Notes under the pieces: generated by a model
What the model was told of the DNA's origin: nothing
Database searches by the model: none
What the model saw: the letters and a program-made list of their open reading frames with translations, nothing else
Part shown: positions 3,733-64,000 of the stretch, in pieces
Numbering within the stretch: position 1 is the first letter of the stretch
Layout of the letters: every line of letters starts with the position of its first letter
Assembly: GCA_041645165.1 (NCBI GenBank)
Contig: JBAZQN010000007.1
Span: forward strand, 8,318 to 72,317
Direction of reading: 5' to 3'
Origin: Patescibacteria group bacterium
GTDB taxonomy: Bacteria; Patescibacteriota; Patescibacteriia; 2-02-FULL-49-11
Length of the DNA stretch: 64,000 bases
Made by a program: the position numbers and the translations under genes

Positions 3733-3733
3733 A

Positions 3734-6783: not shown

Positions 6784-6834
6784 TAACCATCCAATTCTGC
6801 CACCATTTTACCATCCTTCACCCATCCGCGCCAC

Positions 6835-7045
6835 TAAATTAATCAGCCATATCCGTCTTATCCCATCCTATCCGACTTATCCGTTCCTATCCGATCCATT
6901 CCGCTTATCCGTCTTATCCCAATATCTCCGACTTATCCGTTCCTATCCGATCCATTCCGCTTATCCGTCTTATCCCACCTATCCGTCTTATCCCAACCTC
7001 TCAAATCTAATCAACCTATCAGACCTATTCTGACTTATCCGTCTT
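6835..7045. repeat. pyrimidine-rich TATCC-type repeat array phased at about 10 bp, including a ~57-bp tandem duplication
   Basis: cttatccgt / cctatccga / ccattccgc units recur roughly every 10-11 bp. gacttatccgttcctatccgatccattccgcttatccgtcttatccca occurs twice in tandem. Confidence 0.8.
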
Positions 7046-7112
7046 ATAATCCTATCCGCCACCTCTCGCCCACCTTTCAACTTCCAGCTTCTAACTTCTC
7101 CCACTTTCTCCT

Positions 7113-38111: not shown

Positions 38112-40871
38112 TCAGGCGGCGCTCATTTTCGCAAATGCGATAAACAAAAGCGTGAACACGGCGGTCATAATAAAGGGCGCAAAATCGGAGAGATAGTCGC
38201 GCCGTGCTAATTGAAACCGTTTCAAAAGGAGCGAATTGGTAACGACCGAAACCGAGCTTAATGCCATCGCAAGGCCCGCAAGCTCCGGCTTGAGCGACAA
38301 GCCGATCCCTATGAATATCCGCGCCGCAACGGGAATACCGATGACGTTATAAAACAGGGCGAAGAACATGTTCTGTTTTACCTTGCTCATGGTCACGCGG
38401 CTTAAACGGATGGCATGCGCCACATCTTGCAGGTCATTCTTGATAATCACGACGCCGCCCGCTTCCATCGCCACATCAGTGCCGCTCCCCATGGCAATGC
38501 CCACATCCGCCTGTGCGAGCGCGGGCGAGTCATTGATGCCGTCGCCCACCATGGCGACCCTGCTCGCGCGCACGCGCCCCCGCCGATCCGTCTGGGGCAC
38601 GAGTTGGAGCTTCTTCACTGCTTCTGCTTTTTCGTGCGGCAATACCTCCGCTAAAATATTCTGTTCGGGAATGCCGAGTTGTTTGCCTATTGCCAAGGCA
38701 GTACGGCGATTGTCTCCCGTTATCATATAAATGGAAATCTTTGCATCTTTAAGCATGGACAGTGCGGCAAGCGACGTATCTTTGATCGTATCGGATACCG
38801 CAATAATGCCCAGCACTTTGTCTCTGCGCGCGAGCAGCATCGCGGTTTTGCCCGCAGTCTCAAGGCGCTCTACTCTGCGGCTAATTATTTCTAAGTTATG
38901 CCCCAACCCTGCCATAAGCGCGCGATTGCCAAAGAAATATTCTTGGCCTGCCACAGACCCTGAAACGCCCTTGCCGGGAATCGCTTTAAAATTCTCGACT
39001 TCTTGCATCTGCGCGCGTTCGGCTTCCGCGTAGGCGGTAATGCTCTCTGCAAGCGAGTGTTCAGAGCCTTTTTCAAGGCTGCCGGCAATCCCCAACAGTT
39101 CGTCTTCCCCTATCTCGCTTACTGAGACAAGGTCAGTTACTTCAGGAGTTCCTTTCGTGAGCGTGCCTGTTTTATCAAAGAGCACCGCATCAATTTTTGA
39201 AAGCGCTTCCAAGGGCTCCCCTCCTTTAATCAGTATGCCGAACTCCGCGCCCTTGCCGGTCCCCACCATCACCGCCGTCGGCGTGCCAAGGCCGAGCGCG
39301 CAGGGACACGCAATCACAATCACTGACACGAAGGTAAGGAGCGCGAACGTGAGAGAGGCACCTAGGGCAAAATACCATACCAGGAAAGAGAGGAGCGCCA
39401 AACCGATCACCGCAGGGACAAACCATGCGGAAATCCGGTCTGCATACGCCTGGATCGGCGCCTTTGACCCTTGCGCGTCTTCAATAAGCTGGATGATGTG
39501 TGAAAGAACCGTATCCGCGCCCACTTTCGAAGCGCGAAATTCAAAACTGCCGAGCTTGTTCATGGTCGCGCCGATGACCGTATCGCCCTCTTTCTTTTCC
39601 ACCGGCATGCTTTCGCCCGTGAGCATGGACTCGTCAACGGCAGAATACCCTTTGGTGATCACGCCATCGACAGGAATCTTCTCGCCCGGGCGCACCACCA
39701 CCGTATCGCCTGCCACGACCTCTTCCACGGGAATGTCCATAGCGGTTCCTTGGCGCAATACCCGGGCGGTTTTCGCCTGTAATCCCATGAGTTTCTTGAT
39801 CGCATCGCTGGTGCGGCCTTTCGCGCGCGCTTCCAGCCACTTCCCCATGAGCACGAAGGTAATGAGCAACACGCCGATTTCGAAATAGAGATTAGGAATC
39901 TTCTCGCCCAAAAGCGCCCACACAGAACCCGTGGCGAGCCAAAAGCGGACAAACTCGTAAAGGCTGTAGAAAAATGCGGTGCTCGTGCCGATCGCGATGA
40001 GGCTGTCCATGTTAAACGTGCCCATGCGCAGGCTAGACCACATGCCGCGGTAAAAACCCGCGCCGAGGATGAATTGCGCCGGCAGCGCCAGCATGAGAGA
40101 AATGGCGCCAATGGCAGGAAGGATCTGCTCACGGAAGGGAAGGCGGGAAGAAAAATCAAGCGCCATGAAATAGACGAGCGGCACGCTCAATATCACGCCA
40201 AAGATAAACTTGTCACGGTACGCGCGAATTTCCTTCTCGCGCTTTTTCCTATCAAATTCCTGGTCTTTGGGATTGCTTATCTCCGCCTTATATCCCGCGG
40301 CCTTCACCGCATCCTTTATCTTCTCCTCATTGAGCTTCCCCGCATCAAACACCACGCGCGCTTTTTCGGCGCCATAATTCACATGCGCCTCCCTGACCCC
40401 GGGAACTTTCCTTAATTTGCGCTCAATAAGATTCGCGCAGCTTGTGCAGTGCATGCCATAGATATTGAAACTTGCGCGCCTCTCTCCCTGTGCTCCTGCT
40501 GCCTGCGGCGCAGCCTGTGCGGGCTCTCCTTGCTCGCCTTCGCCTAAAGGCTTCGGCGAAGCAGGCCCGCCTTGCGGCAGGCCCGGCGAAGCAGGCTCAT
40601 ACGCGCTTAATCGTTCCAAAAGGGAGCTCATGGGCCGCAGCGTCTTCTGCAAAAATGAAGCAAATTCCTCTGCGTCCTGCTTGCCTTCCGGAAACTCTAT
40701 GGAACCATTTTTTTGCACCTCAATTTTCCCCACGAACTGGGGCGACTGGTCCTCTGAATGCCGTAAATTCCCTTCAGCGTGAATCGTGCTCTCAATGTGG
40801 AGCTTGAACGCGTGCGGGTCTTTTTGCGGCTTTAAATCCATGGGATGAGCCGCGCCATTTGAGGTATCCAT
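38112..40871 (-). CDS. copA: copper-translocating P1B-type ATPase
   Basis: HMA domain ([12 protein letters not shown]), CPC in TM6 ([15 protein letters not shown]), DKTGTLT, and the [10 protein letters not shown] hinge. The internal ATG (MDTSNG) is preferred so that it does not overlap copZ. Confidence 0.85.
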
Positions 40872-40878
40872 ATATTTA

Positions 40879-41097
40879 TTATGATAAAACGCCTTCGAGC
40901 GTATACGCGCCGAGCGATTCAATCTCTTTCTTTAAACGCTGCCAATCCAGATTCTCTTCGTGTTCAACCACCGTCTTCCCGGTGATAAAATCCACGGTGC
41001 ACGCGCGCACCCCCGGCACGTCGCGGCAGGCATCTTCGATGAGCGCTTTGCACGATGCGCAATGTGTCCCTTTGATGGTAATGGTCGAGGTAGCCAT
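40879..41097 (-). CDS. copZ: copper chaperone CopZ-like HMA domain protein
   Basis: 72 aa. [12 protein letters not shown] (MxCxxC). Confidence 0.7.
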
Positions 41098-43695: not shown

Positions 43696-45432
43696 CTATT
43701 GAGGGACCCCGCAGCTGCCGCTTCCCCCGCCTCCGCAGCCGCATCCGCTCGCGCCTGAAGGCACCGGGGAATTATCGCTCAAAGCCGCGCCAGAAAGAGT
43801 GGGGGCGTCCGCGCGGTCAGCGCTCACCGCTTCGATAACGCCAGAAATCATGCCCATCCAGCAGCTGAATTTATATTTCCCGGCTTTGGGCACCGTGAAT
43901 TCCTTAACCGATGTCGTGCCGGGAGTAAGGTCTATCTGCCCGCTAAACAAGCCGCGCGCGAGCACCGCATTGGTGCAGCCGCTGGTGCCCGTATCAGTAA
44001 TCTCCCACCTCACGGGCACGCCTGCCCTCACCTTGAAATAGTTAGGCTTATACCCTTGCGAGGACGCTTCCATCTTGATAACCTGCACGCCGTTTACCAT
44101 GGCGGGAAGGTCTTTATCGTCTGTCTTCGCGGCGCCGTTCGTAGCGGAAGTGGCCGCTTTAAGCGAGAAATTACTTAATGAGGGAGCTCCCAGCGCGTTT
44201 AACTGCGAATTAATATTGAAGAGAGCGAAAAAGAGCACCACCACTCCCGCGACCTTAAGGAAGGAGCTCGACAGATGCGGCCTTGAAGCAAATGTGACGC
44301 TCGAGAGGCCAATCATGAGGAGAGGCAGTGCGGTGCCCAAGGCAAACGAGAACATGATAAGCCCGCCTTGAAGAGCGCTGCCGGAGAGGAGCGCCAATCC
44401 CTGCGCGGTGATGGTAAATCCGCAGGGAAGGAAAAAAGTAAACGCGCCCATCAAGGATGGGAGGAAACGCCCTTTAAATTTCGATTCGTCCGCAATGCGC
44501 CGGGTAATGGATTTTGGCAAAGTAAACTGGAATTTCTGAAATGCCTTGACTCCCAGCATTTGGAGGCCCAAAAGCAGCATGAATCCTGAAACGCCAATCA
44601 CGAGCAAGGAGCTAAAGGTTAAGGAAATTCTCAACTGGCTCCCCACGGCCCCGAGCACCGCGCCGAAAAAGGCGTAGGAAGCCATCCGTCCCGCGTTGAA
44701 AAGGAGATGCGGCTGGAGTTTAGAGATGAGCGTTGCCTCGCGCGCGTAAAGCTCATGCCACTGTTTCGACATTGACAGGATGATGCCGCCTACCAAGGCC
44801 GCGCAGGTGGAAAGGCCCGCAAGCAACCCGAGGAGAAAAAAAGAAGGCAGGGATGAACGCGCGCTCACATTGACGAGGGCGCCGATACCTAACTTATTAA
44901 ACAGTATGAAAACGGCAATAATGGCAAGAGAAATGCCGATAACCGCACCCGCATTGCTCTTCTTTTGAACCTCGGCTTCGCGGGTTGGATGGTTAAAAAA
45001 CCGATATCCATCTTGCTTAAATAATTGATCCAACTCTGCGATATTTGGTTTTTTGTCTCGGTATTCTATTACTACCTCTCCCTTATTGGTTGAGGCTTCG
45101 ACTGATCGTATGCCATCCAATTTAAGCAGCTTTTTTTCTATAAGCACTTCGCAGCTCGCGCAGTGCATGCCTTTAACATAATAGGTGTGCTCTTGCGTTA
45201 GTTGAGCGCTCTGCGCAGGGTCTGCTATGACGCGGTAGCCAAGGCTCCTCAAAGCCTGAATAATTTCATCCTGCGCGATACTCTCTTTGTCAAATTCGAC
45301 AGACGCCTCTCCTGTCTGCTCATTGACGAGTACGCTCTGCACGCCTGCCAGCACCTCAATTTCTGTTTCAATGCGTATTTTATCATCAATGGATTCCACG
45401 CCCTCAAGATGAACCTTTATAGTATGGAACAT
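43696..45432 (-). CDS. two HMA domains, a DsbD_2-type transmembrane domain and a C-terminal cupredoxin-like domain with a Gly/Cys-rich tail
   Basis: YYVKGMHCASCEVLIE (MxCxxC), membrane Cys motifs LAGLSTCAAL and FFLPCGFT, the C-terminal beta-sandwich FKVRAGVPVRWEITDTGTSGCTNA...FSCWMGMISGVIE, and the tail GCGCGGGGSGSCG. Confidence 0.55.
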   Translation of the reverse strand: MFHTIKVHLEGVESIDDKIRIETEIEVLAGVQSVLVNEQTGEASVEFDKESIAQDEIIQALRSLGYRVIADPAQSAQLTQEHTYYVKGMHCASCEVLIEKKLLKLDGIRSVEASTNKGEVVIEYRDKKPNIAELDQLFKQDGYRFFNHPTREAEVQKKSNAGAVIGISLAIIAVFILFNKLGIGALVNVSARSSLPSFFLLGLLAGLSTCAALVGGIILSMSKQWHELYAREATLISKLQPHLLFNAGRMASYAFFGAVLGAVGSQLRISLTFSSLLVIGVSGFMLLLGLQMLGVKAFQKFQFTLPKSITRRIADESKFKGRFLPSLMGAFTFFLPCGFTITAQGLALLSGSALQGGLIMFSFALGTALPLLMIGLSSVTFASRPHLSSSFLKVAGVVVLFFALFNINSQLNALGAPSLSNFSLKAATSATNGAAKTDDKDLPAMVNGVQVIKMEASSQGYKPNYFKVRAGVPVRWEITDTGTSGCTNAVLARGLFSGQIDLTPGTTSVKEFTVPKAGKYKFSCWMGMISGVIEAVSADRADAPTLSGAALSDNSPVPSGASGCGCGGGGSGSCGVPQ

Positions 45433-49329: not shown

Positions 49330-50523
49330 TCAATCAAATGTAGCCAGAACTTGAGGCCAATCGCGCCAGCCGAGCACGGAAGCGGCCTGGCGCTTCTGCG
49401 TTTGTTCTCCCCCATACACAATATACGACGAAGCGGCCTGCTTGGATATGGCACGGTAATACGCAATCCCGTCAAAAAATTCTGATGCTACGGTCTGGCC
49501 GGATTTGATTTCAATCGGCAGTAACCCTCCATGACGCTCAATAACCAGGTCAACTTCGTGGCCGGTTTTGTCCCTCCAAAAAAACGCCCGAGGCACAAGC
49601 CCGCGGTGAAAACGGTGCTTTAACCACTCCGCGATCACCATTGATTCAAAAATCCCTCCTCTCAAGTAATGGCTTTTGAGTTGACTGGCCTGTGTAATAT
49701 GGAGAAGGGCGCACAACACGCCCGTATCATAAAAATAAATTTTTGGCGTTTTCACCACCCGTTTATTAAAATTCCTGTGATGCGGCTGCAATAAGAAAAT
49801 AATGAAGCTCGCTTCCAGGATGGAGAGCCACGCCTTCACGGTTGCCTGATTAATGCCGCAATCGTTGCCAAGCGAGGTGATATTAAGGAGTTGGCCAACC
49901 CGTGCCGCTACGAGCTGTAAAAATTTTCTAAAAGTGCTGAGGTTTTCGATATTTTTAATCAGCCGCACGTCGCGCTCCACATAGGTCTGAATATAATTTT
50001 GGTAATAACTGGATGCGTCCATCTTTTGATCAAATAGCTTAGGGTAGAATCCCTTCAATAGTACTTCCTCAATCGTTATCCGAGTAAACCCCTTATACGC
50101 TTCGGCCAATTCTTCAAGCGCAAGCGGCAGCAAATGCGCGATGGCAACCCGGCCGGCAAGCGACTGGGTAATGCCTTCCAGCAATAAAAAATTCTGTGAG
50201 CCGGTCAAAATATACTGGCCGTTCTTGCGTGTTTCGTCCGCGATTGTTTGCAAGAGGGAAAAAAGCTTAGGCACCCGCTGCGCTTCATCAATCACCGCCC
50301 CGTCCGCATACTGGCCAAGCAGGCCTTTCGGATCCTTTTCAGCAAACTCCCTCGTTTCCAGATCTTCAAGGTTGAGGTAAGGTTTAGTGGGGAAAAGGGA
50401 TCTGACGAGGGTAGTTTTGCCAGACTGTCGAGGACCTGTCACGGCAACGACCGGATAGTGTCGAGTGTATTCTTTAATTTTTTTCGCTAGGGTTCTCTTA
50501 ATCATGTTATTATGATACTCCAC
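49330..50523 (-). CDS. AAA+ ATPase (AAA_14 plus DUF4143 family)
   Basis: Walker A GPRQSGKTT, Walker B AVIDEAQ, and a C-terminal DUF4143-like region. Confidence 0.75.
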   Translation of the reverse strand: MEYHNNMIKRTLAKKIKEYTRHYPVVAVTGPRQSGKTTLVRSLFPTKPYLNLEDLETREFAEKDPKGLLGQYADGAVIDEAQRVPKLFSLLQTIADETRKNGQYILTGSQNFLLLEGITQSLAGRVAIAHLLPLALEELAEAYKGFTRITIEEVLLKGFYPKLFDQKMDASSYYQNYIQTYVERDVRLIKNIENLSTFRKFLQLVAARVGQLLNITSLGNDCGINQATVKAWLSILEASFIIFLLQPHHRNFNKRVVKTPKIYFYDTGVLCALLHITQASQLKSHYLRGGIFESMVIAEWLKHRFHRGLVPRAFFWRDKTGHEVDLVIERHGGLLPIEIKSGQTVASEFFDGIAYYRAISKQAASSYIVYGGEQTQKRQAASVLGWRDWPQVLATFD

Positions 50524-50907: not shown

Positions 50908-51639
50908 CTATTTTTCCCCAAGAAAGCTTACGATTTTCTGCTCAAGGATTTTACGGAAATCTTTAAGATGCATGACATGGCTTGCGGGTAAAAATTCCCG
51001 AAGTTCGCCGCGGAAATTGATCTTGGATTTCTTCAATAAAGCAAGAACTTGAGTGAGATCGTCTTTTTCCTTCACCAATGGATAGTTTCCCGAAAGCAAA
51101 AAGAAATAATCGTAAAAATCCCTTGGTTTATGACGATTGATAAGTGCTTTCATTTTACCTTTAATGATTTCTTCTTTCGGTAAATGGACAAGGGTATAGG
51201 GCTGAATATAGTCATTTTCAATCAGCGTTCTGACGCCCCTAATCCAATTGTCATTGCGCAGAGAAACCTCAAAATAAATTTCAGTGATTTTATCGTAGGC
51301 GCTAAATTCAAATATGCCCAAGTATCCTCCGGTTGTGTATTTCCCTTCTTTGAGGGAAACGTGGATACCGGTCTTCTCGATATTGGCCAAGGTATTGATA
51401 AAAAGTTTCTCAACTTTATGTTTGGCAATTTTCACACCGGTAAAATCAAGATCTTCTGAAAAACGAGGACTATGGAAAACAATCCGCAAAGCTGTGCCGC
51501 CCTTGAAGAGCAGACGATCCGCATCGGGCAATTGGTAAAGATACGACAAAAACAAGTGCTGGCAATATTCTCGAACGACATTTCCGAGTTTAGTTTGCGT
51601 GTGATCAGTAAATTTTTGGAGGTTTGCGCGTGTCAACAT
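50908..51639 (-). CDS. AbiEii/AbiGii-family nucleotidyltransferase toxin (type IV TA)
   Basis: GGTALRIVFHSPRFSEDLDFT is the DUF1814/AbiEii signature. Confidence 0.7.
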   Translation of the reverse strand: MLTRANLQKFTDHTQTKLGNVVREYCQHLFLSYLYQLPDADRLLFKGGTALRIVFHSPRFSEDLDFTGVKIAKHKVEKLFINTLANIEKTGIHVSLKEGKYTTGGYLGIFEFSAYDKITEIYFEVSLRNDNWIRGVRTLIENDYIQPYTLVHLPKEEIIKGKMKALINRHKPRDFYDYFFLLSGNYPLVKEKDDLTQVLALLKKSKINFRGELREFLPASHVMHLKDFRKILEQKIVSFLGEK

Positions 51640-52231
51640 ACATTTGCTTGATACGCTTTAACATACCCGGCCTCTTGAACAGTTTTGCATATTCAATCAG
51701 TTTCGGCCTGTCAATGTTCCGCAGTTTCAAACGATCATTCAGGGACACTTTTTTGAGATCAACAAAATACAGATAATCAGCCAGCGCCTTTTCCGGCTCG
51801 GCAATCAAAACTTTATAACGATCGACTTCCCGTAATTCATAACCGGTGAATGCCTCGGTTTTAATATGACGATAAGTGAAATTCCCGATTGGCGTTTCAA
51901 ATTCCCTGGAAGTTTTAGTGGTTATTGAAGTATTTCCATACACCACTTCTGGAATAATTTTATAATAAGATAGCGCCGTTTCCAGCGAGACATAAGATGG
52001 CTGATAAAGCTTGTTCGCGATAAAAAAGTAATCCGGGTGGCTGTCTTTAATTGTATAAAAATTATTGCGCAACTTTACAAAAAGACCGCTCGTTAAATTC
52101 GAGGAAATAAAATTAGCCGCTCTTTTCAAGGACACATTGAAAACGCCCTTGAATTCTTGTGGAGTAAACACCTCTAATCCTATTTTTTTAAGTTTTTCTT
52201 CCACTTCTATACGTTTCAGTTTTAGTGCCAT
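51605..52231 (-). CDS. AbiEi-like antitoxin / transcriptional regulator
   Basis: It is immediately upstream of and overlaps the AbiEii gene. Length and composition are typical of AbiEi. Confidence 0.6.
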   Translation of the reverse strand: MALKLKRIEVEEKLKKIGLEVFTPQEFKGVFNVSLKRAANFISSNLTSGLFVKLRNNFYTIKDSHPDYFFIANKLYQPSYVSLETALSYYKIIPEVVYGNTSITTKTSREFETPIGNFTYRHIKTEAFTGYELREVDRYKVLIAEPEKALADYLYFVDLKKVSLNDRLKLRNIDRPKLIEYAKLFKRPGMLKRIKQMYVDTRKPPKIY

Positions 52232-52760: not shown

Positions 52761-55136
52761 TCAGAGTTTCTCAAAATCCTTTTCCGAAATTCCGAGCCCG
52801 AGATTCCTCATCACGCTATAGGCGTCTGCGGCGCGGCCGAGGAAATAGCGCTTACCGTCTTTGGGGTTGATATACCACGCCTCTCCCCTGCTCTCTACCT
52901 GCAGAAATATCTTGCCCTTATGCTTATTGGCAAACGCGATATCAGTGCGCACCTTAGCGGTGCCATGCACCGTGGGCGCGCTTCCTTGCTCGATCTCTTG
53001 CTTATCGCCCATGCCGTCGCCATCCGTATCGGCTTTCGCCTTATCCGTTCCCAGCGCGTCTTCGAGCAGATCCGACAATCCATCTTTATCTGCATCCTCC
53101 CCTGCCATCTGCACGAGCCCCACGGGAATTTTTGACAAATCAACTGTCTTTACGCCAACCCCCTGCTGGCGCATAATCGCATACGCATCATCCGCACGGC
53201 CTAAGTAATACGCGGTCGTGTCCCGCACGCTAAAATACCAGGCTTCACCATGTTTCTCGACCTGGAGAACAATTCTCCCCAAAAGCGACCTCCCCTTGCT
53301 GCTGGAAATTTTCTTTGAGGACAAGGGCGCAGAAGACGATTGAGGCTGGAGGTTCTGCGACAGTGATGGCGCGGGTGACGGAGCGGCTGAAGAGGAGGGG
53401 GTCGCCGCAGGAGGAGCAGCTACCGGCCTGCCGAGCGAGAGCCCGGCAAGCACCTCACGCTCAAACTGCGCGACAAGATCGTCAAATTTCTTCTGATCGC
53501 TGCCGTACCACTCAAACATGACAACCATCACGCGATCCTTCTCTCGTATGCGATAACCGGCGCCAAACCATTCAGCGGTGTTCCCCGTTTCTTCATTTTC
53601 GAAACGGTATCGGTAGTGGATGCCATCCGGCACCTCGCCGTTCACACGGTAATGAAATGATGACTGATAACGTTTGGGAGTGTAGAGAGACGCGACGGTA
53701 AAATCGCTGGCAATGATATTCTTAATAGAATCAAAATACTGTTCATTTGTCGCGTTTTCTACGCTTGAGGTTTGTTCCACAAGATACACGCCCCAGCCTA
53801 ACTCCGGTATGTCCTGATTTTGGCCGCTCGCCGGATGGCCGGAATGGTTAAGCGGCTTGAGCACCCATGGCTTGGGTACGGTAATCGTAAAGTGAGGTTT
53901 CGCGTGTTCGTAATACCGCTGTTCTGTAAAAGGAGCGCCATCATCCTTCAACACAAGCGTTTTGAACATGCTGTCAATCTTGTCTTTATCTTTCTTGTTT
54001 TTGCCTTCATACCAGGTGAGCGTGACAATGTATTGCTTACTTGGGAATAGGGCGGTATATAACTCCCCTTCCGACACTTGTTTTGCGAAACGTTTGCCGG
54101 TCTTTCCGCTCACCACCATATCCCCCTGTTGAATAAGAGAAGAGATCTTCTGGAGTATGTTAGCACTTACTTCCAGGATATGCGGCGTGATGAGAAGCTC
54201 CGTAGGCGCCCAAGATGCACTCAAAAATCCACCGTCGGGATCGTCATTTTCCACGCCTATGGCGTTCTCGTCATCGTGAAAAAATTTCCAGCCATCCGGT
54301 TTCGTCATCTTAAGATAAGGGATAGTGCTGGTAAACACGTTGATATTTTTCAGCCCCACTTGCTCCCTGATAAGCGCATCTATCCTGCCCTGCAAAGGTG
54401 AAACGCTTGTGGACTTCTGGTATGCCTTCAAGAGCCACGGTTCTACCGTTGCCATGCTAATGGCGTATCCAAGGCTTCCCGTGTAATCAGAATGCGCTTC
54501 CGAAGTGATGCCGATAAGTTCTCCGCTCACATTCACGAGTGCGCCGCCGGATGATCCAAAGGAAATCACGGCGCCGGTTTTTATCCACGATTTTTGATAT
54601 TTTTCTAACGTGCCCGCGACCGTATCCACGCTTGCGGTAATGGTCTTCCCTCCAATGCTGGGGTACCCGAGCGCGAGCACCTCGTCGCCGGTTTTCACTG
54701 ACGCGTGCGTGCCGCGATTATAATAATCAAACTGGGTGATGCGGCTAAGACCCTCCACGTTGCGGATTTTCAAGAGCGCGAGATCAAGCTCCTTATTTTT
54801 GTCGATCACGTGGGCGGAATAACTGCAGTCCGGCTCCTCGGTGAGCGATGTGGTAAGGCATACGATGTACGCGGTTGCGAGGGGCTCCCGGAACCGATCC
54901 TCGCTGTGGATGACGTGGTAATTGGTGAGCATGTCGCCCTGGTTATTGATGATAACTCCCGAACCATAGCCCACGAGGACGAGATTGCGATAATTATCCT
55001 CAATGTAAGTCTTGATTTTTACCACAGCCTTATGCGCGTCATCCGCGTTCACCGCCGCGCGTGCGGGCATAGCGGTGCTGACAACAAACAAGATTGCAGC
55101 CATGATAATGACAAATGTTCGGGAAATGGTATACAT
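52761..55136 (-). CDS. secreted trypsin-like (S1C/HtrA-family) serine protease with a Pro/Ser-rich linker, TSP3-like calcium-binding repeats and two ~45-aa C-terminal modules
   Basis: Catalytic triad contexts TNYHVI, D, GSSGGALVN. DTDGDGMGD / DADKDGLSD repeats. The duplicated LQVE(K/S)(H/R)GEAWY...YFLGRA(D/A)DAY modules. Confidence 0.7.
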   Translation of the reverse strand: MYTISRTFVIIMAAILFVVSTAMPARAAVNADDAHKAVVKIKTYIEDNYRNLVLVGYGSGVIINNQGDMLTNYHVIHSEDRFREPLATAYIVCLTTSLTEEPDCSYSAHVIDKNKELDLALLKIRNVEGLSRITQFDYYNRGTHASVKTGDEVLALGYPSIGGKTITASVDTVAGTLEKYQKSWIKTGAVISFGSSGGALVNVSGELIGITSEAHSDYTGSLGYAISMATVEPWLLKAYQKSTSVSPLQGRIDALIREQVGLKNINVFTSTIPYLKMTKPDGWKFFHDDENAIGVENDDPDGGFLSASWAPTELLITPHILEVSANILQKISSLIQQGDMVVSGKTGKRFAKQVSEGELYTALFPSKQYIVTLTWYEGKNKKDKDKIDSMFKTLVLKDDGAPFTEQRYYEHAKPHFTITVPKPWVLKPLNHSGHPASGQNQDIPELGWGVYLVEQTSSVENATNEQYFDSIKNIIASDFTVASLYTPKRYQSSFHYRVNGEVPDGIHYRYRFENEETGNTAEWFGAGYRIREKDRVMVVMFEWYGSDQKKFDDLVAQFEREVLAGLSLGRPVAAPPAATPSSSAAPSPAPSLSQNLQPQSSSAPLSSKKISSSKGRSLLGRIVLQVEKHGEAWYFSVRDTTAYYLGRADDAYAIMRQQGVGVKTVDLSKIPVGLVQMAGEDADKDGLSDLLEDALGTDKAKADTDGDGMGDKQEIEQGSAPTVHGTAKVRTDIAFANKHKGKIFLQVESRGEAWYINPKDGKRYFLGRAADAYSVMRNLGLGISEKDFEKL

Positions 55137-57022: not shown

Positions 57023-57268
57023 TTAATTACCTATAAAATTCAATACGACACCCATAATTATCAAACAAATTCCCAAAAGCGTAAACGGAATTTTTATCAG
57101 GATTCGAGTTTGCTCATTTTTATCCTGAAATAATTCCCTGAATCTACCATAGCCGGGGAAGATAGTAAATAAATAGTATATCTTACCCAATGCTGAAATA
57201 ATGATGGGGAACTGCATTAATGCTATTATGACAAAACCAAATATAATCAGACGTATTGCTGTACTCAT
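57023..57268 (-). CDS. small two-TM membrane protein (possible immunity or orphan)
   Basis: 81 aa, hydrophobic, immediately downstream of the RHS remnant. Confidence 0.3.
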   Translation of the reverse strand: MSTAIRLIIFGFVIIALMQFPIIISALGKIYYLFTIFPGYGRFRELFQDKNEQTRILIKIPFTLLGICLIIMGVVLNFIGN

Positions 57269-57279
57269 AGACTAAGCTA

Positions 57280-58085
57280 TTATTCACTACTCTGGGTCTT
57301 TTCTAATCCAACCGCCAAGAAAACCGAATCCTGTCTTAAGAACTGACCAATATTCTGCTTGTAGTACCTGGCGTTCGCATACGTCAAACTGGTGTCCCTG
57401 TCATACATGTGCCCTGTAAACTTCCTCTGTTCGTCGAAGGAGCCTGATTTCCAGTCAATCCTCATTGATCCGTAGGGGTAGTAGTCCAATAATTGTACCA
57501 TGCCTCCGGTGCTATTCGTAGCGACGTTAGAACCCGTCAGATGATCCGTGTGGATGTATTGGAGGGTTGAGCCTTCCACTGTGGCAACCAGCTGGCTTCC
57601 TGCGTAGATATGCTTACTATTCTTCGTCCCATCGCTATTATACAGCTTATTCGCATACCGCGTCGTCACGCTTCCTGAAACCAGTTTCGTCCTCTGGCCT
57701 GTATGGTCGTACTGATAGGTGACGGTGGAACCTGTTTTCTGGGATTGGGTCAGCTGGTTGGCGTAGTTCCATGAGTGAGTCCAGGTGGAATCAGAGGTCA
57801 GGTTGCCGTTGTTATCATACGCGTAGGTCACGCCGTTGACCGACGTTGCCGCATGGGGGTTCGCGTAATTGGTGCCTTGGTAGAGGTAAGCCCCGACATC
57901 TGACTTGTTAGAGATGTTGCCGATGGCGTCGTAGGAATACGTTTGCGTGAAGTTTCCTGGACTGGTGGATGTGGCGTTGGTGGCGATAGCGGAGGTAAGG
58001 CGATGCAGATCATCATAGGCATGGGTGATGGTATCCGCGTCTGGCTCTGCATTTGGCGCGATTGCGGGGGCTATTTCGTCGAATA
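57280..58085 (-). pseudogene. RHS/YD-repeat C-terminal fragment, truncated and frameshifted remnant
   Basis: 57280-57831 encodes YDHTGQRTK...YANARYYKQNIGQFLRQD but stops right after the RHS core. 57828-58052 continues in another frame. The DNA is near-identical to 59200-59640 and 61590-62040. Confidence 0.55.
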
Positions 58086-58129
58086 AATCTTATTAAGGTA
58101 TTTGCCCCCTTATCTATACTCAACTTCAC

Positions 58130-58417
58130 TCAATCAATCATAATGCCTATATTATGCAATTGTTTCTTTGGGTCCCAATTTTCTGGTTCATTGTCTATCT
58201 TATCTCTCCATGGCATTCCCTCCTCTATCCACTTTTTACGCAATTCCAAATGCCGTTTCTCGCGCTCTTGCGCAGTCTTACCGAAATCATGATATCCATA
58301 TTGTATATGACAACATGGGCAAATATTATCGGACTGACTGTCTCCCTTCCATGCAGGCTCATGATAAACCGAATATATATCGTACCCGCATACCGGGCAA
58401 TAAGAATCGTTAGTCAT
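58130..58417 (-). CDS. small Cys-rich (zinc-ribbon-like) protein, candidate immunity protein
   Basis: CPVCG...CPCC. Its start is 3 nt after the stop of the upstream RHS-CT cassette. Confidence 0.4.
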   Translation of the reverse strand: MTNDSYCPVCGYDIYSVYHEPAWKGDSQSDNICPCCHIQYGYHDFGKTAQEREKRHLELRKKWIEEGMPWRDKIDNEPENWDPKKQLHNIGIMID

Positions 58418-58420
58418 ATC

Positions 58421-59656
58421 TCATTCCTTAATAACGTTATCAACTTTATTCCAATCAACCAACTCGCCTTGTTGGTTATTCCAATAATCCAGATTTGTTC
58501 CTTGTCCATGAACGGCAGGGTCTGGTTTGAAGAACGTCCTGATAGTGCCGTCCGGATTGTAGGAACCGAGCGTGTTCGCTGCTTCGTCATAGACTCTGAC
58601 AATGCCATCTTTATCAATCTTAGTCGGCAACTTATCGCTCTGTGCTCTCTGAAGAAAGTCGCGAGCCAAATCTGTATATTCGTCAGCGCTCCGAGCGCCG
58701 AATTCGCTAGCATGGTCCAAGTAATGTTCTTTATATTTTGTAGGGCTGGCCCACGCCTTAGCTCCTTTCAACCCTTTCGACGCATCCGCCACATTATCGA
58801 AGTGGCCCGCAACGAGTCTCGCTGCCTTACCGTATCCGCCTCCAACGGATAGAAGCCCAATGCCTACGCCTGCAAGAGTAATACTCTTCTGAATTTTGGT
58901 CGAGTTTGGATTAAGCCAAGTCTTTACGAGATCATAGACGTCCCAGACCGTAAAACCCGCTTCAACTGCAAGGTACATTAATCCTGCGATACTGAATGTA
59001 ACCGGTTCAGTGCCGAACGGGTCAATATATTTCATCGGATTATTATTCGCGTATGCATAGCTGTTCAATCCTTGTGGATTGCTCAACAGTGCTGCCGACT
59101 GCGCTCCATCTCGAACACCAATAGTAAGATACACGGGATCCTGTGATAAGAACCGTCCAATCCCCTGCTTGTAATACCTCGCATTGGCATACGTTAAACT
59201 GGTATCCCTATCAAACTCATGCCCCGTGAACTTCCTCTGTTCGTCGAAGGAGCCTGACTTCCAGTCAATCCTCATTGATCCGTAGGGATAGTAGTCCAAT
59301 AATTGTACCATGCCTCCACTACTGTTCGTAGCGGCGTTCGAGCCGGTGAGGTGGTCGGTATGGAGGTATTGAAGTGTCGTACCCTCGACTGTTCCTATGA
59401 GCTGGCTTCCTGCGTAGATATGCTTGGTTGCCGTGGTTTGCTTGATATTGTAGAGCTTGTTGGGATAGTGGCGGGCATAGCCGCTCACGCCGTCATAGTA
59501 CTTGGTCCTTTGCCCTGTGTGGTCGTATTGGTAGGTGACGGTGGAGCCTGTTTTCTGGGACTGGGTAAGCTGGTTAGCGTAGTTCCAAGTGTGAGTCCAC
59601 GTCGAATCTGACGTGAGATTGCCGTTGTTGTCATACGCGTAGGTCACGCCACCCAC
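58421..59656 (-). CDS. orphan RHS C-terminal cassette: RHS core plus a distinct C-terminal toxin domain of unknown type
   Basis: YDHTGQRTKYYDG...DRDTSLTYANARYYKQGIGRFLSQDPV (RHS repeat-associated core), then a ~230-aa unrelated C-terminal domain ending HGQGTNLDYWNNQ. Confidence 0.6.
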   Translation of the reverse strand: MGGVTYAYDNNGNLTSDSTWTHTWNYANQLTQSQKTGSTVTYQYDHTGQRTKYYDGVSGYARHYPNKLYNIKQTTATKHIYAGSQLIGTVEGTTLQYLHTDHLTGSNAATNSSGGMVQLLDYYPYGSMRIDWKSGSFDEQRKFTGHEFDRDTSLTYANARYYKQGIGRFLSQDPVYLTIGVRDGAQSAALLSNPQGLNSYAYANNNPMKYIDPFGTEPVTFSIAGLMYLAVEAGFTVWDVYDLVKTWLNPNSTKIQKSITLAGVGIGLLSVGGGYGKAARLVAGHFDNVADASKGLKGAKAWASPTKYKEHYLDHASEFGARSADEYTDLARDFLQRAQSDKLPTKIDKDGIVRVYDEAANTLGSYNPDGTIRTFFKPDPAVHGQGTNLDYWNNQQGELVDWNKVDNVIKE

Positions 59657-59696
59657 TGACGTTGCCGCGTGGGGATTGGCGGTTTCAGTGTCGGAA

Positions 59697-60233
59697 TCAA
59701 TTTTCGGTGCTTGTTATTGTATTATTCGGATTAAAGTATTTTTTATTCTTAAACAGTCCTATTAATAACACAATAAAGACTAAGAAATAAATGCCAAAAT
59801 TTACCGCCATGCCCACCGGAGAAAAAGTAAAATCAAGCGCTTCCTGACGTACCGCAAGTCCACGCGCCTCACGACTTATAATATATGCGTCCTTTGCCAA
59901 ATCGACATGAGTGAATGAAATGACAAACATGACTACCGTAAAGAATAAATAAAGAACAATACCCGCCACAGCTATTGGGAAGGCTCGTGGATATTGTTTA
60001 AATACAAAGACCGCTGCACTACCCGTAACAATCAATACCGCGAGAGCAAAGACTATATACAATACACCGAATCCAAAATTATTTAGTATATTGTAGTCGG
60101 ATACCGTTTGATAGCGGAGAAGATCGAAAAGTGTGCGTACGAACAACCAAACTAATACGATTATAAGAATCGTGATAATTTTGGGCCGTTTTGACTGCGT
60201 ACTGACCTGTGAATTTGTGACCGTTTGTTCCAT
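59697..60233 (-). CDS. four-TM membrane protein, function unknown
   Basis: Hydrophobic segments only. Confidence 0.4.
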   Translation of the reverse strand: MEQTVTNSQVSTQSKRPKIITILIIVLVWLFVRTLFDLLRYQTVSDYNILNNFGFGVLYIVFALAVLIVTGSAAVFVFKQYPRAFPIAVAGIVLYLFFTVVMFVISFTHVDLAKDAYIISREARGLAVRQEALDFTFSPVGMAVNFGIYFLVFIVLLIGLFKNKKYFNPNNTITSTEN

Positions 60234-60248
60234 ATGATTTTTTGTAGA

Positions 60249-60842
60249 TTACCACATCCGTTCGAATTCGGTGGATTTTATCAATTCTAAATTGGTGAGC
60301 TTAGCGCTTTCGAGCGCCTCTGCAACACGTTCTGTGACGAATCTTACACCTGTACCTTCCGCAAGGAAAATATCGCTTCCGTCCCACATTTTGAGATCGA
60401 AGTAATATCCATATCGTGCACGATATGATCCGTACTTCTCACTTGCAGGTACCTGCACCCACTCACTTTTACTATCATCAATGGGTCCACACTTACCCGT
60501 CACTACAAGCCCGCTATATCCTGACACTTCCTCTCTTTTTTTATTAAAAACTCTTGCCGGGAAAGTTGACCAGCCGGTGAACCTTCCCTTCTTCAACACT
60601 TCGACTACTCTATCGCTGATTAGGAGAATGGGAGGGTTTGCCGACATGAAGTCCTTTGGCCGTGTGCCGCCATTATGACCGAAGATCACGGGCTTTGCTG
60701 AACCTTCCTTTCCAGCAAGCAAGTCGAAGTCGTATTGTACCTTATCTTTGACTCTTTCAGGATACTCCTTAACATATTGGCTCATCGCGCCATATTCTAT
60801 CCCCGCTCCTAGAAGGTAAAATTGGTCTGGAGTGTATGCCAT
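60249..60842 (-). CDS. candidate immunity protein for the AHH toxin
   Basis: Its start codon is 1 nt after the toxin stop. The longer annotated ORF (to 61133) would overlap the toxin by 290 nt, so the internal MAYTPDQF start is preferred. Confidence 0.45.
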   Translation of the reverse strand: MAYTPDQFYLLGAGIEYGAMSQYVKEYPERVKDKVQYDFDLLAGKEGSAKPVIFGHNGGTRPKDFMSANPPILLISDRVVEVLKKGRFTGWSTFPARVFNKKREEVSGYSGLVVTGKCGPIDDSKSEWVQVPASEKYGSYRARYGYYFDLKMWDGSDIFLAEGTGVRFVTERVAEALESAKLTNLELIKSTEFERMW

Positions 60843-60843
60843 A

Positions 60844-62451
60844 TTATTCAATCTTAAAATCAATCCTATACTTCTCGGCTGTTTCATTCGCAAAATTATG
60901 TATCTGCTCTTGCGAAGCGTTTGGATTTTTACTGATAAACTTCTCCCACCTTGCATTATACTCGTTTGATAACTTCTGATGTGTCCCATCCGGTCCCTTC
61001 TGCCACCATGAACCGTACTTGGGATCATGGACATTAATACCGGCTCGCTCAAAGAATCCTCTAAAATTTTCCGTTTGCGGCAACATATGGTGCGCGTCGA
61101 ACCCGCTCCCCGGATTCTTTCCAGTGAGTTCAATTAAGTTACCCCTGAAATGCCCTGAGGTAAAACTCTTAAAGTTCATCGCTCTGTCGACCGCTTTTGC
61201 TGCGTCACTCGCCTTATCCGCAACCCTCGTCACCCGTGCCGCTGCTCCCAACCCGGTCGCGAAAGGAATAGCGGCGCCGCCAATATCAAGCCCCAGGCTC
61301 AACATTTCTCCCTTCACGTCTCCTCCATGAGCAATCGCACCACCTAATTTGTAAAGATCGTACGCGATGAAGCCGATATCAATAAAGGTATCAAGAAACT
61401 CACCTCCCTTGTCAACATACTTGAGAGGATTGTTGGTGACGTAAGAGTAAGAATTGAGGTATTGAGGATTGGAGAGATACTCTCGCATCCTCATGTTCGT
61501 TCCTTGTTGGATTGCCTGCTCGTCCCCGATAGAGAGGAATACGGGATCCTGCGACAGGAAACGCCCTATGTTCTGCTTATAATACCTCGCATTGGCGTAG
61601 GTAAGACTGGTGTCTCTATCGAACTCATGCCCCGTGAACTTCCTCTGCTCGTCGAAAGAGCCTGATTTCCAGTCTATCCTCATGCTGCCATACGGGTAGT
61701 AGTCCAATAATTGTACCATGCCTCCACTGCTGTTCGTAGCGACGTTCGAGCCAGTGAGGTGGTCGGTATGGAGGTATTGGAGGGTTGAGCCTTCCACGGT
61801 GGCAATCAGTTGACTTCCGGCGTAGATGTGCTTGGTTGCCGTGGTTTGCTTGATATTGTAGAGCTTGTTGGGATAGTGGCGGGCATAGCCGCTCACGCCG
61901 TCATAGTACTTGGTCCTTTGCCCTGTGTGGTCGTATTGGTAGGTCACGGTGGAGCCGCCTGTGGATTGGGTAAGCTGGTTAGCGTAGTTCCAAGTGTGAG
62001 TCCACGTCGAATCTGACGTGAGATTGCCGTTGTTGTCATACGCATACACGGCAGAGCCGACTTTTGTCACTGCATGAGGGTTGGCGTAATTGGTGCCTTC
62101 ATAGAGATACGTGCCTTGGTCAGATGCCGTGAGAATATTCCCAATCGCGCTGTAGGTGTACGTTCTTCCGGTGTTATCGCCATTCGCCGCGCCGGTAATT
62201 GAAGAGGTCAAAAGCCTATGCAAATCGTCGTAGGTATAGGTGATGGTCTTGCCTGCGTTGGTGCTGGACGCTTCTACGATCTGAGTGATATTCCCCACCT
62301 GGTCGTATGACCATTCTTGAGGTATCACATTTTTACGATCGTTAGCTTTTGATACCTCTGCATCATCACTTGCAATCCACCCCCTATCAATAACGATCGC
62401 TATATATTGGAAGTGGATATGAACGAGTATTGAACGCCATAATGCTCTCAC
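60844..62451 (-). CDS. RHS/YD-repeat protein (C-terminal portion) with an AHH-family HNH-like nuclease toxin domain
   Basis: YD repeats (TYTYDDLHRL, YAYDNNGNLT, YQYDHTGQRT), the RHS core (DRDTSLTYANARYYKQNIGRFLSQDPV) and C-terminal GSGFDAHHMLPQ (the AHH motif). Confidence 0.6.
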   Translation of the reverse strand: MRALWRSILVHIHFQYIAIVIDRGWIASDDAEVSKANDRKNVIPQEWSYDQVGNITQIVEASSTNAGKTITYTYDDLHRLLTSSITGAANGDNTGRTYTYSAIGNILTASDQGTYLYEGTNYANPHAVTKVGSAVYAYDNNGNLTSDSTWTHTWNYANQLTQSTGGSTVTYQYDHTGQRTKYYDGVSGYARHYPNKLYNIKQTTATKHIYAGSQLIATVEGSTLQYLHTDHLTGSNVATNSSGGMVQLLDYYPYGSMRIDWKSGSFDEQRKFTGHEFDRDTSLTYANARYYKQNIGRFLSQDPVFLSIGDEQAIQQGTNMRMREYLSNPQYLNSYSYVTNNPLKYVDKGGEFLDTFIDIGFIAYDLYKLGGAIAHGGDVKGEMLSLGLDIGGAAIPFATGLGAAARVTRVADKASDAAKAVDRAMNFKSFTSGHFRGNLIELTGKNPGSGFDAHHMLPQTENFRGFFERAGINVHDPKYGSWWQKGPDGTHQKLSNEYNARWEKFISKNPNASQEQIHNFANETAEKYRIDFKIE

Positions 62452-62893
62452 CGGATGCTTTTAGAGATTTTCAAGGTGCTTTGCGGTTACTATGCCCACC
62501 TCTGGAGGGTCTACTGGACTTCCCCTACCCCTGCGGCATCATTGTCCTGTAATGAAGTATATCACGGAGGAAATCGAACGAAAAAATCCATGGAAGCCGT
62601 CTTTCTGATACGGTGATAAAGGGGATGTTTGATCGAAATTCTCTCTCCTTGAATAGGGGGAAAGGTGCCCGCGTCACGAAATATCGGAGTGCGATCAGCA
62701 GCGGCTTCGCTTCAATGTGAGCAACAAATTGAGTATGCCCGCCCAAGGCTAGACTCCACCGACGTACATCCCCTACCCATGGGAGCAAAATCGTCTATTC
62801 ATTGAAGAACTAAGTGTTAAGAAGAGAGGAGAAAATAACATACGTATCCTCTTTATCTTATACTACAAATAGGATAGGGAAATCATTCAAATA

Positions 62894-63718
62894 TTACTTA
62901 GGTATTAACACTTCTATATCCAGAAGCTGATATAAATAATATTTAGTTTTTTCTATTACCTTATTGGTTAAACCATAAATTTGTTGATAATTATATTTGG
63001 CATTTTCTGACCACCAATTTTTTCCTTCTTCAATTGATTCTGTTAAATTTTTCTTCACCTCAACTACCCCTTTTTCTGTTAACCTACTGAATAATTCTTC
63101 CTGATTAAGTATTGTTTCGGCCATATACGCTTTTGAAATATAGGGGTCAACGAATCTATAATTTCCATGACGAAGATCTCCCCTTAATTTTGAACTACCA
63201 AAAACTCGTGATATATCTTTCACCCATTGCTTCAATGCTTCGTCGACTTCTTTTTTATTTATAGCAACTTTTTTAATATCGTTTTTCATTTCAGTTATAT
63301 AACGTACTATTTTATTTTTTACCGTCTCCATATCTTCTAGATAAGCGTATATATGATGTTCTAAAGCTTCATGGTTTGAAACTTTTTCATTACTTGTATA
63401 AAATTCGTTAAAATAAAGCGGGTATTTGCTTATTTTTTTTACAAACCAATCAATTGCTGTCAGTAATTTCCAATATTTTTCTACGATATCCCTATTAAAA
63501 CTTGATCCTTTTTTCGTATCGTCTGCTAAAGAAGGAGAAAAATACTCTGGATTAAGATAAATCAACAAATTGGATAATAGATTTTCTATTTCATTTTGTC
63601 TACTAGGAGTACTCATACTTGCTTCTTCAATTCTACATCTCCAGTCGAGAAAACAGTACTTTGTTGATAGCCGACTGAAAGAGTGGGGTGCAGGCGGCCG
63701 GAACGCTGAAGTCTTCAA
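62894..63718 (-). CDS. hypothetical protein encoded in a strongly AT-rich segment
   Basis: 274 aa, K/E/N/Y-rich. Local composition is far more AT-rich than the flanks. Confidence 0.4.
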   Translation of the reverse strand: MKTSAFRPPAPHSFSRLSTKYCFLDWRCRIEEASMSTPSRQNEIENLLSNLLIYLNPEYFSPSLADDTKKGSSFNRDIVEKYWKLLTAIDWFVKKISKYPLYFNEFYTSNEKVSNHEALEHHIYAYLEDMETVKNKIVRYITEMKNDIKKVAINKKEVDEALKQWVKDISRVFGSSKLRGDLRHGNYRFVDPYISKAYMAETILNQEELFSRLTEKGVVEVKKNLTESIEEGKNWWSENAKYNYQQIYGLTNKVIEKTKYYLYQLLDIEVLIPK

Positions 63719-64000
63719 GACTCGGATGAAAGAGCTACAGACTCCGCAAGCTCGAGCATCCCAAACCTCGCAACAGCTTCTTCCTGCATAACATACTCAA
63801 CAACAATTATGCGACTCAGCTCCGCAGAGTTATTTTATTTCTCCTCATGTAAATAAATTGGAGAGGGTTCTTGAAACCGCTATTCGCTCTTACCCACTAA
63901 GCAGGACCATTCAAGACATACCGGCCATTGTGCCAGGTCACCAATAAAACGTATAAGTAATTTCTTTATACGTTTGCATTCTTTTTTTCAACAACCAACC

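Follow-up and report, generated by a model that had tools for sequence, protein, structure and literature searches.

A probable orphan rhs-CT/immunity array, seen from its downstream end, in a Patescibacteria contig

The stretch of DNA considered here, called the window, comprises 64,000 nucleotides (nt) of contig JBAZQN010000007.1 from a Patescibacteria group bacterium (assembly GCA_041645165.1). On its minus strand, between positions 57023 and 62451, lie three open reading frames (ORFs), A, B and C, of 535, 411 and 183 amino acids (aa), each of which bears the 3' end of an rhs gene and is followed by a small gene. This region is very probably the downstream part of an orphan rhs-CT/immunity array (CT, C-terminal toxin region), situated behind at least two more rhs genes in a member of the Patescibacteria, or candidate phyla radiation (CPR). 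The window is an exact piece of the ENA contig ERZ27249422:k141_80972 (74,818 bp), referred to as locus L001, in which position x corresponds to window position 66488-x.

Cassettes A, B and C are tandem copies of an rhs 3' end, with DNA identities of 74-89% over 400-700 bp. Pairwise comparison by blastn gives 88.8% identity over 509 bp for A and B, 79% over 547 bp for B and C, and 75% over 583 bp for A and C. Because the DNA copies are 75-89% identical over 509-583 bp, chance resemblance is excluded. The longest exact DNA matches are 116 bp between A and B, 54 bp between A and an rhs gene located upstream of it, 47 bp between that gene and B, and 29-32 bp in matches involving C. What has been kept in each cassette is 500-800 bp of conserved 3' coding sequence, consisting of the last YD-repeat block and the RHS-associated core. 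The initial annotation of this DNA, made from its letters, had described three minus-strand ORFs with an RHS core, and profile searches bear this out: A, B and C match the RHS_repeat family PF05593 with 37.5, 25.2 and 23.4 bits, respectively (cutoff 22), and the RHS-associated core model TIGR03696 with 59.9, 69.1 and 41.2 bits (cutoff 32.5). The TIGR03696 match is complete in A and B, and in C it reaches only from model position 1 to 55 of 76.

In a protein alignment of the three, the invariant core block ends in the motif DRDTSLTYANARYYKQ.IG.FL.QD, after which the sequences part. This divergence had first been called complete. It is not quite so, because the Gly-rich pre-toxin linkers show a weak relationship between A and B (27% identity, pairwise E=0.009). 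The demarcation motif of B, NNPMKYIDPFGT, is near canonical, and that of the upstream gene, NNPLKYIDPVGLD, is canonical. Cassette A has NNPLKYVDKGGE, a variant that is found again in two related loci, L083 and L091, and in P0131, a protein encoded on contig L090.

At their 5' ends, the cassettes are truncated at points that differ from one to the next. All of the called starts are GTG, lacking both an ATG and a Shine-Dalgarno sequence, and NCBI picks other GTG codons, giving 494 aa for A and 408 aa for B. In B and C, RHS homology reaches upstream of the called start. The first 45 codons or so of A are unrelated to RHS, and the homology between A and the product of the upstream gene, P0001, opens exactly at the start of the last RHS block of P0001, past a Pro-rich linker. 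No hydrophobic leader is present in A, B or C. A promoter scan yielded no convincing promoter for the cassettes, terminator-like sites occur at chance level, and Rfam and tRNA scans of the window returned no RNA genes. The concept of the orphan module and the features that define it come from Poole et al. (PMC3150448). With their 5' truncations, their missing initiation signals and their homology to a longer upstream rhs gene, the cassettes are very probably, as had been proposed, orphan and displaced members of a polymorphic RHS toxin locus.

Could the tandem copies arise from the assembly, as a mis-joined repeat or a chimeric contig of a metagenome-assembled genome (MAG)? This can hardly be credited at all. 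Although the contig ends inside the repeat family, as is typical of repeat-induced breaks, and A and B share an exact match as long as 116 bp, the 74,818-bp ENA record and a 77,422-bp NCBI/JGI record agree exactly in the A, B, C and immunity proteins and in the order of their accessions, and a separate run, SRR8449827 (L003), has the tip of B together with the small zinc-ribbon gene behind it, Zn95, at 100% identity. Related genomes also share the architecture. The copies differ by 11-25% in their DNA, which suffices for an unambiguous assembly.

The array continues beyond the window. A fourth rhs gene is found 2.06 kb upstream of A, at 2-1975 of L001 (window-equivalent 64513-66486), where it is cut by the end of the ENA contig. 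In the 77,422-bp NCBI/JGI record, its product is P0001, a protein of 797 aa (MFA4873017, Patescibacteria group bacterium). P0001 looks like a longer displaced copy, since it begins inside RHS repeats. Its tip of about 207 aa is unrelated to the other tips and has no match in Pfam, NCBIfam or the PDB; within it, the motifs VSLLFHSGG and INLLICHSGD look like the His/Cys dyad of a caspase-like or CHAT-like hydrolase. Two ORFs come after P0001, of 92 aa with three predicted transmembrane (TM) segments and of 75 aa with two, and such membrane proteins would suit an envelope-acting toxin. A fifth rhs cassette, the farthest upstream, encodes P0013 (MFA4873019), 506 aa long, N-terminally partial at the contig end and equipped with a CHAP peptidoglycan-hydrolase tip. 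Gene order upstream of the window rests on sequential NCBI accessions, which run from C (..009) through Zn95 (..010), B (..011), ImmA, the gene behind A (..013), and A (..014) to P0001 (..017) and P0013 (..019). Because P0001 and P0013 precede A, the array has at least five members on the same strand, of which the window holds the last three. The statement that no N-terminal RHS part lies upstream of 62451 within the window is correct, and the contig beyond holds P0001 and P0013. The accompanying suggestion to look there for an RHS N-terminus or a PAAR/VgrG partner has led to more rhs genes, though to neither a full-length N-terminus nor a PAAR or VgrG match. Exact-protein look-ups with P0001, P0005, P0013 and a 274-aa ORF yielded no sequence beyond the contig end.

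PAAR and VgrG, components of type VI secretion systems (T6SS), have no match in A, B, C, P0001, P0013 or the approximately 22 neighbours with Pfam data, a set that is not an exhaustive scan of the window, and the same genes contain no match to an EagR-type chaperone. A T6SS linkage was rejected on the ground that no T6SS component occurs among those neighbouring genes. A prophage origin was likewise rejected, as none of the seven small ORFs and tip sequences scanned has a PHROG match.

The tip of cassette A passes the DUF2380/SitA6 model PF09533 (cutoff 26.3): the whole protein scores 27.4 bits, and the tip taken alone 29.7 bits. The match covers profile positions 93-179 of 187; P0024, the corresponding protein of L091, which comes from another metagenome, scores 28.1. 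The AHH motif of tip A reads DAHHMLPQ. Thus, of the earlier assignment to AHH-type nucleases, the motif and the PF09533 match hold, and a match to the AHH model PF14412 does not. Tip A also stays far below the SitA6 lipoprotein equivalog TIGR02269 (34.7 versus 85.75 bits), its domain ending an RHS fragment rather than a lipoprotein. A structure model of tip A was discarded: the AlphaFold2 (AF2) prediction, from an alignment of 2 sequences, had a pLDDT of 58, and its Foldseek matches (FtsH N-domain, integrase cores) were meaningless. No usable result came from searching the PDB with the sequences of tip A, of ImmA and of the upstream gene's tip.

ImmA, the 197-aa product of the gene directly behind A, is supported by sequence comparison as the candidate immunity protein for tip A, of the Imm11 family. 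Of the seven aligned ImmA family sequences, one of which is the window protein itself, six match Imm11, the best with E=2.1e-7; a precomputed PF07791 annotation is attached to five ImmA homologues. Moreover, L091 has an ImmA counterpart (73% identity) directly after its copy of tip A. AHH toxins are known to be paired with Imm11 (PMC12077181, PMC3482391); for SitA6/PF09533 toxins the partners are double-CXXCG proteins, from the immunity clan that also contains Imm11, CL0767 (PMC12077181).

Comparisons of A with its relatives give a mosaic pattern, which is evidence of modular exchange. Relative to P0024, the identity of A is 67% for the RHS block, 94-96% between the core motif and the end of the pre-toxin linker, and 81% for the toxin domain. 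Relative to P0001 the order is reversed, the RHS block being 85% identical and the tip 22%. The L091 unit as a whole (tip A 86%, Imm11-like gene 73%, membrane gene 82%) rides on an RHS block much more divergent than that of the window, and different cassettes come after it. In L083, a variant of tip A (IHH motif, 46% identity) is followed by a different immunity gene and then by the 178-aa membrane gene (84%). Exact matches of 29-116 bp, the lengths present here, are adequate substrates for RecA-dependent recombination.

Other loci contain several copies of the core as well. From Ca. Saccharibacteria, L005 has four and L004 has two; L010, from Adlerbacteria, has two, and L041, from Acidobacteriota, three. 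In L005, a main gene of 2133 aa and an ORF of 154 aa are followed by RHS cassettes of 450, 421 and 707 aa, with a small ORF after each. The full-length proteins of L005 (2133 aa) and L007 (2661 aa) have a Sec-type signal peptide, SpvB, FG-GAP and RHS repeats, and are without PAAR/VgrG. Other Patescibacteria relatives in the homologue list bear VanY, M15, M23, SLT, LysM, EndoU, Ntox44 and Tox-REase tips.

The tip-A unit ends in a gene that the earlier gene list, to that extent incomplete, left unmentioned. It encodes a protein of 178 aa with four predicted TM segments (59697-60233), is located between the ImmA gene and cassette B, and matches no Pfam, NCBIfam or PHROG family. The protein is 84% identical in L083 and 82% identical in L091, in the same position. 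It stays at 82-84% even though in L083 the adjoining toxin is only 46% identical and the immunity gene has been exchanged. In the window and in L083, the next truncated RHS fragment starts 10-20 nt past the stop codon of this gene. One possibility is that the 178-aa protein is a new accessory factor, or a second layer of immunity, connected with the Gly-rich pre-toxin linker.

In cassette B, homology begins about 12 nt past the stop of the 178-aa gene. Its tip had been described as an unrelated domain of about 230 aa; its size is about 200 aa, made up of the Gly-rich pre-toxin linker and a toxin domain of about 110 aa. The toxin domain has no match in Pfam or NCBIfam. Nevertheless, its family counts 1456 cluster representatives at E<=1e-3, and in all 150 matches listed, from proteins of 100-1957 aa, the domain is C-terminal. 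The members include several RHS proteins and one protein with a PT-HINT domain. By sequence comparison, tip B is a genuine recurrent C-terminal toxin domain.

The relationship of tip B to a known structure comes from PDB 8EY4, a contact-dependent growth inhibition toxin-immunity complex of E. coli O32:H37. As a single sequence, tip B finds chain A of 8EY4 with E=2.8e-4 (phmmer), and a profile built from 8 members of its family finds the toxin with E=1.7e-16, over chain residues 10-88 of 88. An AF2 model of tip B (pLDDT 77.6) has helices followed by a four-stranded sheet, and a Foldseek search with it places 8ey4_A first (probability 0.99). Across the 8 aligned tip-B sequences, His311 and His315 do not vary. 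Given the profile homology to 8EY4 and the top fold rank, tip B is called a CdiA-CT-type toxin. The model suggests that it may be a BECR/colicin-D-like RNase.

Zn95, the 95-aa product of the gene behind B, has a Cys4 pattern, CPxCG...CPxC. In two unrelated contigs, L089 and L090, ORFs of the tip-B family have a homologue of Zn95 (41-42% identity) directly behind them, and because this synteny is kept in both, Zn95 is taken as the cognate immunity candidate for tip B. The comparative evidence for it as a putative cognate immunity protein is good. The Zn95 family profile matches only generic Cys4 zinc-ribbon, GATA and rubredoxin structures in the PDB and no chain of 8EY4; the match of Zn95 to Cys_rich_CPCC is weak and sub-threshold (E=0.063). 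Together, tip B and the Cys4 zinc ribbon could, as far as sequence allows a judgement, be a widespread toxin-immunity family without a Pfam or NCBIfam model, and this pair may be new. L089 (Logan SRR25168029, 3066 bp, apparently high-GC) has a small array of its own, in which a small ORF follows each of three short toxin-like ORFs and the Zn95 homologue overlaps the stop of the tip-B homologue (65% identity). In L090, positions 125-676 encode P0131, in which a Gly-rich linker like that of tip A is joined to a toxin domain like that of tip B, with the Zn95 homologue following. This hybrid suggests that recombination treats linker and toxin domain as separate modules.

Cassette C is truncated at both ends. 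Its frame is RHS-like (TITHAYDDLHRLTSAIATNATSTSPGNFTQTY...) for about 70 codons in which there is no start codon, the in-frame translation is 86% identical to P0013 over 240 aa, and its DNA is 74-79% identical to the other copies (blastn). The stop comes 14 codons past ...QDS, ahead of the NNP...DPxG demarcation, and C is thus without a toxin tip. This agrees with the earlier view of the third tip as a truncated remnant. The spacing of 1-3 nt that had been given for all three small genes applies to A (1 nt) and B (3 nt) and fails for C, where the gap is 11 nt. The ORF across that gap is 81 aa long, with two predicted TM segments. Searches gave neither a Pfam, NCBIfam or PHROG match nor a homologue in any fetched locus for it; it is possibly, though unsupported, the leftover immunity gene of a lost tip. 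The idea that all three small genes are immunity genes therefore finds support for 60249-60842, through the Imm11 family, and for 58130-58417, through synteny, and not for the 81-aa ORF, which has no homologues and no tip to neutralise. Next after it come a promoter-like site and a housekeeping S49 peptidase gene.

The state of C and its small ORF raises the possibility that the whole locus is decaying junk, that is, pseudogene fragments of past duplications in which tips and small ORFs are functionless. The double truncation and missing tip of C, the want of homologues for the 81-aa ORF and the absence of proper starts from every cassette would all fit such decay. This account is nonetheless very improbable, since A and B run for 1.2-1.6 kb without a frameshift or stop, the immunity genes have clean ATGs 1-3 nt past the toxin stop, the A unit is kept at 73-86% protein identity in another metagenome, and the pairing of Zn95 with tip B is kept in distant, high-GC contigs.

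The explanation proposed here is as follows. The immunity genes, which have ATG starts of their own, would be expressed and would shield the cell when kin or neighbours deploy these toxins. The silent tips would form a reservoir, from which homologous recombination in the shared core-coding DNA would move a tip onto a full-length exported protein and so change which toxin gets delivered. Judging from the Saccharibacteria relatives, this carrier would be 2100-2700 aa long and would comprise a Sec signal peptide, SpvB, an FG-GAP propeller and an RHS shell. After export, the shell would enclose the tip, and the core domain would cut the tip at NNP...D(P/K)xG. As an AHH/HNH-type nuclease, tip A would degrade DNA, with the Imm11-type protein as its inhibitor. 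If the weak signal of a colicin-D-like tRNase fold holds, tip B would be an RNA-cleaving toxin, and the zinc-ribbon protein would be what blocks it. Cassette C would be a dead remnant.

Several points weigh against this explanation or parts of it. Tip A does not pass the AHH model PF14412 (13.2 versus 22.3 bits, E=0.093), and its demarcation motif is of the VDKGG type, not the canonical DPxGL. The Imm11 score of ImmA, 21.3 bits against PF07791, is 0.8 below the cutoff of 22.1 (E=1.8e-4). In the search of toxin and immunity libraries that the initial annotation had recommended, tip A passes PF09533, ImmA falls just short of the Imm11 cutoff and tip B has no Pfam match. For tip B, colicin D tRNase is next after 8EY4 in the Foldseek search, and its matches are weak (1V74, 5ZNM and 1TFK; E 0.1-0.3, TM-score 0.37-0.46); no publication on 8EY4 was found in the literature searched. 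A full-length carrier is not visible at the locus, as both assemblies end inside or near P0013, and because the contigs end before any full-length gene, the recipient of recombination is inferred only from relatives. Toxicity, immunity, nuclease activity, transcription and recombination are all inferred from sequence. Lastly, ORFs A and B are unbroken over 535 and 411 codons. Since a silent reservoir need not stay intact, this could mean that A and B are expressed independently.

Independent expression, through internal promoters or non-ATG starts, would make the cassettes either intracellular toxin-antitoxin (TA) modules or exported mini-RHS toxins. Intracellular toxin-antitoxin behaviour has been shown for an rhs orphan of Salmonella Typhimurium (PMC7043789). 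Besides the intact frames and possible GTG starts of A and B, this alternative can draw on the downstream cassettes of L091 (509 and 420 aa), which carry signal-peptide-like segments of their own, and on the many Patescibacteria RHS proteins of 400-650 aa in the homologue list, though many of these are from short contigs. It is unlikely all the same for A, B and C: they have no hydrophobic leader, ATG or Shine-Dalgarno sequence, in B and C the RHS homology extends farther upstream than the called start, and the region upstream of A has no convincing promoter, the sole site being a 9/12 match inside the ORF. In addition, about 300 aa of RHS would be too short for a closed shell, to go by known Rhs/TcC structures. 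Independent expression is in any case compatible with the reservoir explanation and does not exclude it. In L091, signal-peptide-like N-termini precede truncated RHS/core and tip at 2803-4332 and 5849-7111 (with Tox-REase-7 in one and a WHH-like motif in the other), and from their sequences these cassettes may be independently exported mini-RHS toxins.

Diversification of toxins by recombination in orphan rhs-CT/immunity arrays has been textbook knowledge since 2009-2014, and because the mechanism is already textbook, the locus mainly adds an example. Its interest lies in placing a long array, of at least five cassettes, in the CPR/Patescibacteria, episymbionts whose means of attack and competition are little known; in linking a widespread un-modelled toxin domain, the 8EY4 homologue, to a small zinc-ribbon candidate immunity protein; and in drawing attention to a conserved membrane gene associated with one type of cassette. 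The literature searched yielded no description of such arrays in CPR/Patescibacteria. Among the known systems that come close are WapA of Bacillus subtilis and other Sec-exported RHS toxins of Gram-positive bacteria (PMC12704120). Like the system proposed here, they combine Sec-type export of an RHS toxin in a cell without a T6SS with a tRNase or nuclease tip and a downstream immunity gene; WapA differs in having wall-binding repeats where the relatives here have SpvB and FG-GAP.

The locus resembles the orphan rhs-CT/rhsI modules of enterobacteria, such as those at the rhsC locus of Dickeya dadantii and in Yersinia pseudotuberculosis and Salmonella Typhimurium (PMC3150448, PMC7043789). In both cases, rhs sequence leads up to the demarcation and behind it come a variable CT and a small ORF for immunity, here a candidate one; translation initiation signals are missing, the modules stand one after another downstream of a longer rhs gene, and the same CT is also found fused to other rhs genes elsewhere, as in P0024 here. 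Unlike the enterobacterial orphans, the present ones belong to a Patescibacteria MAG, have no T6SS match in about 22 neighbours and have relatives that use Sec, SpvB and FG-GAP; they also form an array of at least five members, one unit of which includes an extra conserved membrane gene.

The relatives L005 and L007 share SpvB, FG-GAP, RHS, the core and a variable end with the TcB/TcC cocoons of Tc toxins, the TcdB/TcaC class (PMC3482391). This architecture is seen only in the relatives, the present contig ending first, and no TcA-like partner was seen. Furthermore, in contrast to the insecticidal effectors of Tc toxins, the tips here are predicted antibacterial-type nucleases and a CHAP peptidoglycan hydrolase with candidate immunity genes. 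Tip A, with PF09533 and the AHH motif, and its partner of the Imm11 family and clan CL0767 recall both the AHH-Imm11 and the SitA6-double-CXXCG pairs of Myxococcus xanthus (PMC12077181). Unlike those, tip A is not on a lipoprotein and has no delivery by outer-membrane exchange or a T6SS, and here a SitA6-type toxin occurs with an Imm11-type gene, not a double-CXXCG-type one. For tip B, the counterpart is the CdiA-CT of E. coli O32:H37: the tip-B profile spans the toxin chain of 8EY4, and the fold comparison ranks 8EY4 first and colicin D (1V74, 5ZNM) next. It differs in that tip B is on an RHS protein, not on CdiA, its Cys4 partner matches no 8EY4 chain, and the similarity to colicin D is below significance. 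With their tiny genomes and episymbiotic life, Patescibacteria might conduct contact-dependent or secreted warfare on hosts or rival epibionts through Sec-exported, TcB/TcC-like RHS cocoons with tips swapped from long orphan arrays, among them a CHAP wall hydrolase, an AHH-type nuclease and a CdiA-CT-like domain, perhaps an RNase, a tentative suggestion and a doubtful one on the sequences at hand.

The coordinates of the features are collected below.

Features of the rhs array and adjoining ORFs, in window coordinates
Feature	Position	Strand	Basis or remark
Cassette A, 5'-truncated rhs fragment	60844..62451	-	ORF, PF05593, PF09533, TIGR03696
A, RHS block homologous to upstream gene	about 61609-62307	-	DNA 81% identical over 704 bp
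A, RHS-associated core	61402-61701	-	TIGR03696
A, variable tip	60847-61404	-	
A, DUF2380/SitA6-type toxin domain with AHH motif	60862-61119	-	PF09533
ImmA, Imm11-family gene (candidate immunity), 197 aa	60249..60842	-	ATG 1 nt past A stop
Conserved 178-aa protein, four predicted TM	59697..60233	-	Four hydrophobic segments; last gene of tip-A unit
Cassette B, 5'-truncated rhs fragment	58421..59685	-	ORF 58421-59656; homology from about 59685, upstream of GTG
B, RHS-associated core	59012-59293	-	TIGR03696 69.1 bits
B, variable tip	58424-59011	-	
B, toxin domain	about 58424-58759	-	Homologous to CdiA-CT of PDB 8EY4
Zn95, 95-aa Cys4 zinc-ribbon gene	58130..58417	-	ATG 3 nt past B stop; AAGGA Shine-Dalgarno-like upstream
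Cassette C, rhs remnant truncated at both ends	57280..58047	-	ORF 57280-57831; open frame from about 58047; sole start codon GTG 57831
81-aa ORF, two predicted TM	57023..57268	-	11 nt past cassette C; two hydrophobic segments
75-aa two-TM ORF, 3' end	63966..64000	-	L001 2295-2522 = window 64193-63966; belongs to P0001 cassette
Low-GC ORF	62894..63616	-	Start uncertain: 63616 (ATG), 63568 or 63718 (TTG); between P0001 cassette and A

The low-GC ORF has a GC content of about 30% in surroundings of 45-53%, and about 440 bp of non-coding DNA (62452-62893) come after it. Neither this ORF nor the 92-aa and 75-aa ORFs behind P0001 have a match in Pfam, NCBIfam or PHROG.

Among the approximately 22 neighbours with Pfam data are the S49 peptidase, a trypsin-like protease, an AbiE TA pair and a DUF4143 ATPase, and the array may be part of a small conflict or defence island. 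At 50908-52231, an AbiEii nucleotidyltransferase toxin of 243 aa and an ORF of 208 aa upstream of it overlap and are likely to form an AbiE-type TA pair; an ATPase with AAA_14 and DUF4143 adjoins them at 49330-50523. The trypsin-like protease, at 52761-55136, is a secreted protein of 791 aa whose C-terminal part has two repeats of about 50 aa (…LQVE..GEAWY…YLGRA.DAY..M…) with an Asp-rich linker between them. Farther away, 38112-40922 encodes a heavy-metal P-type ATPase with HMA, and 43696-45432 an unusual fusion of HMA, a DsbD-like membrane part and a cupredoxin.

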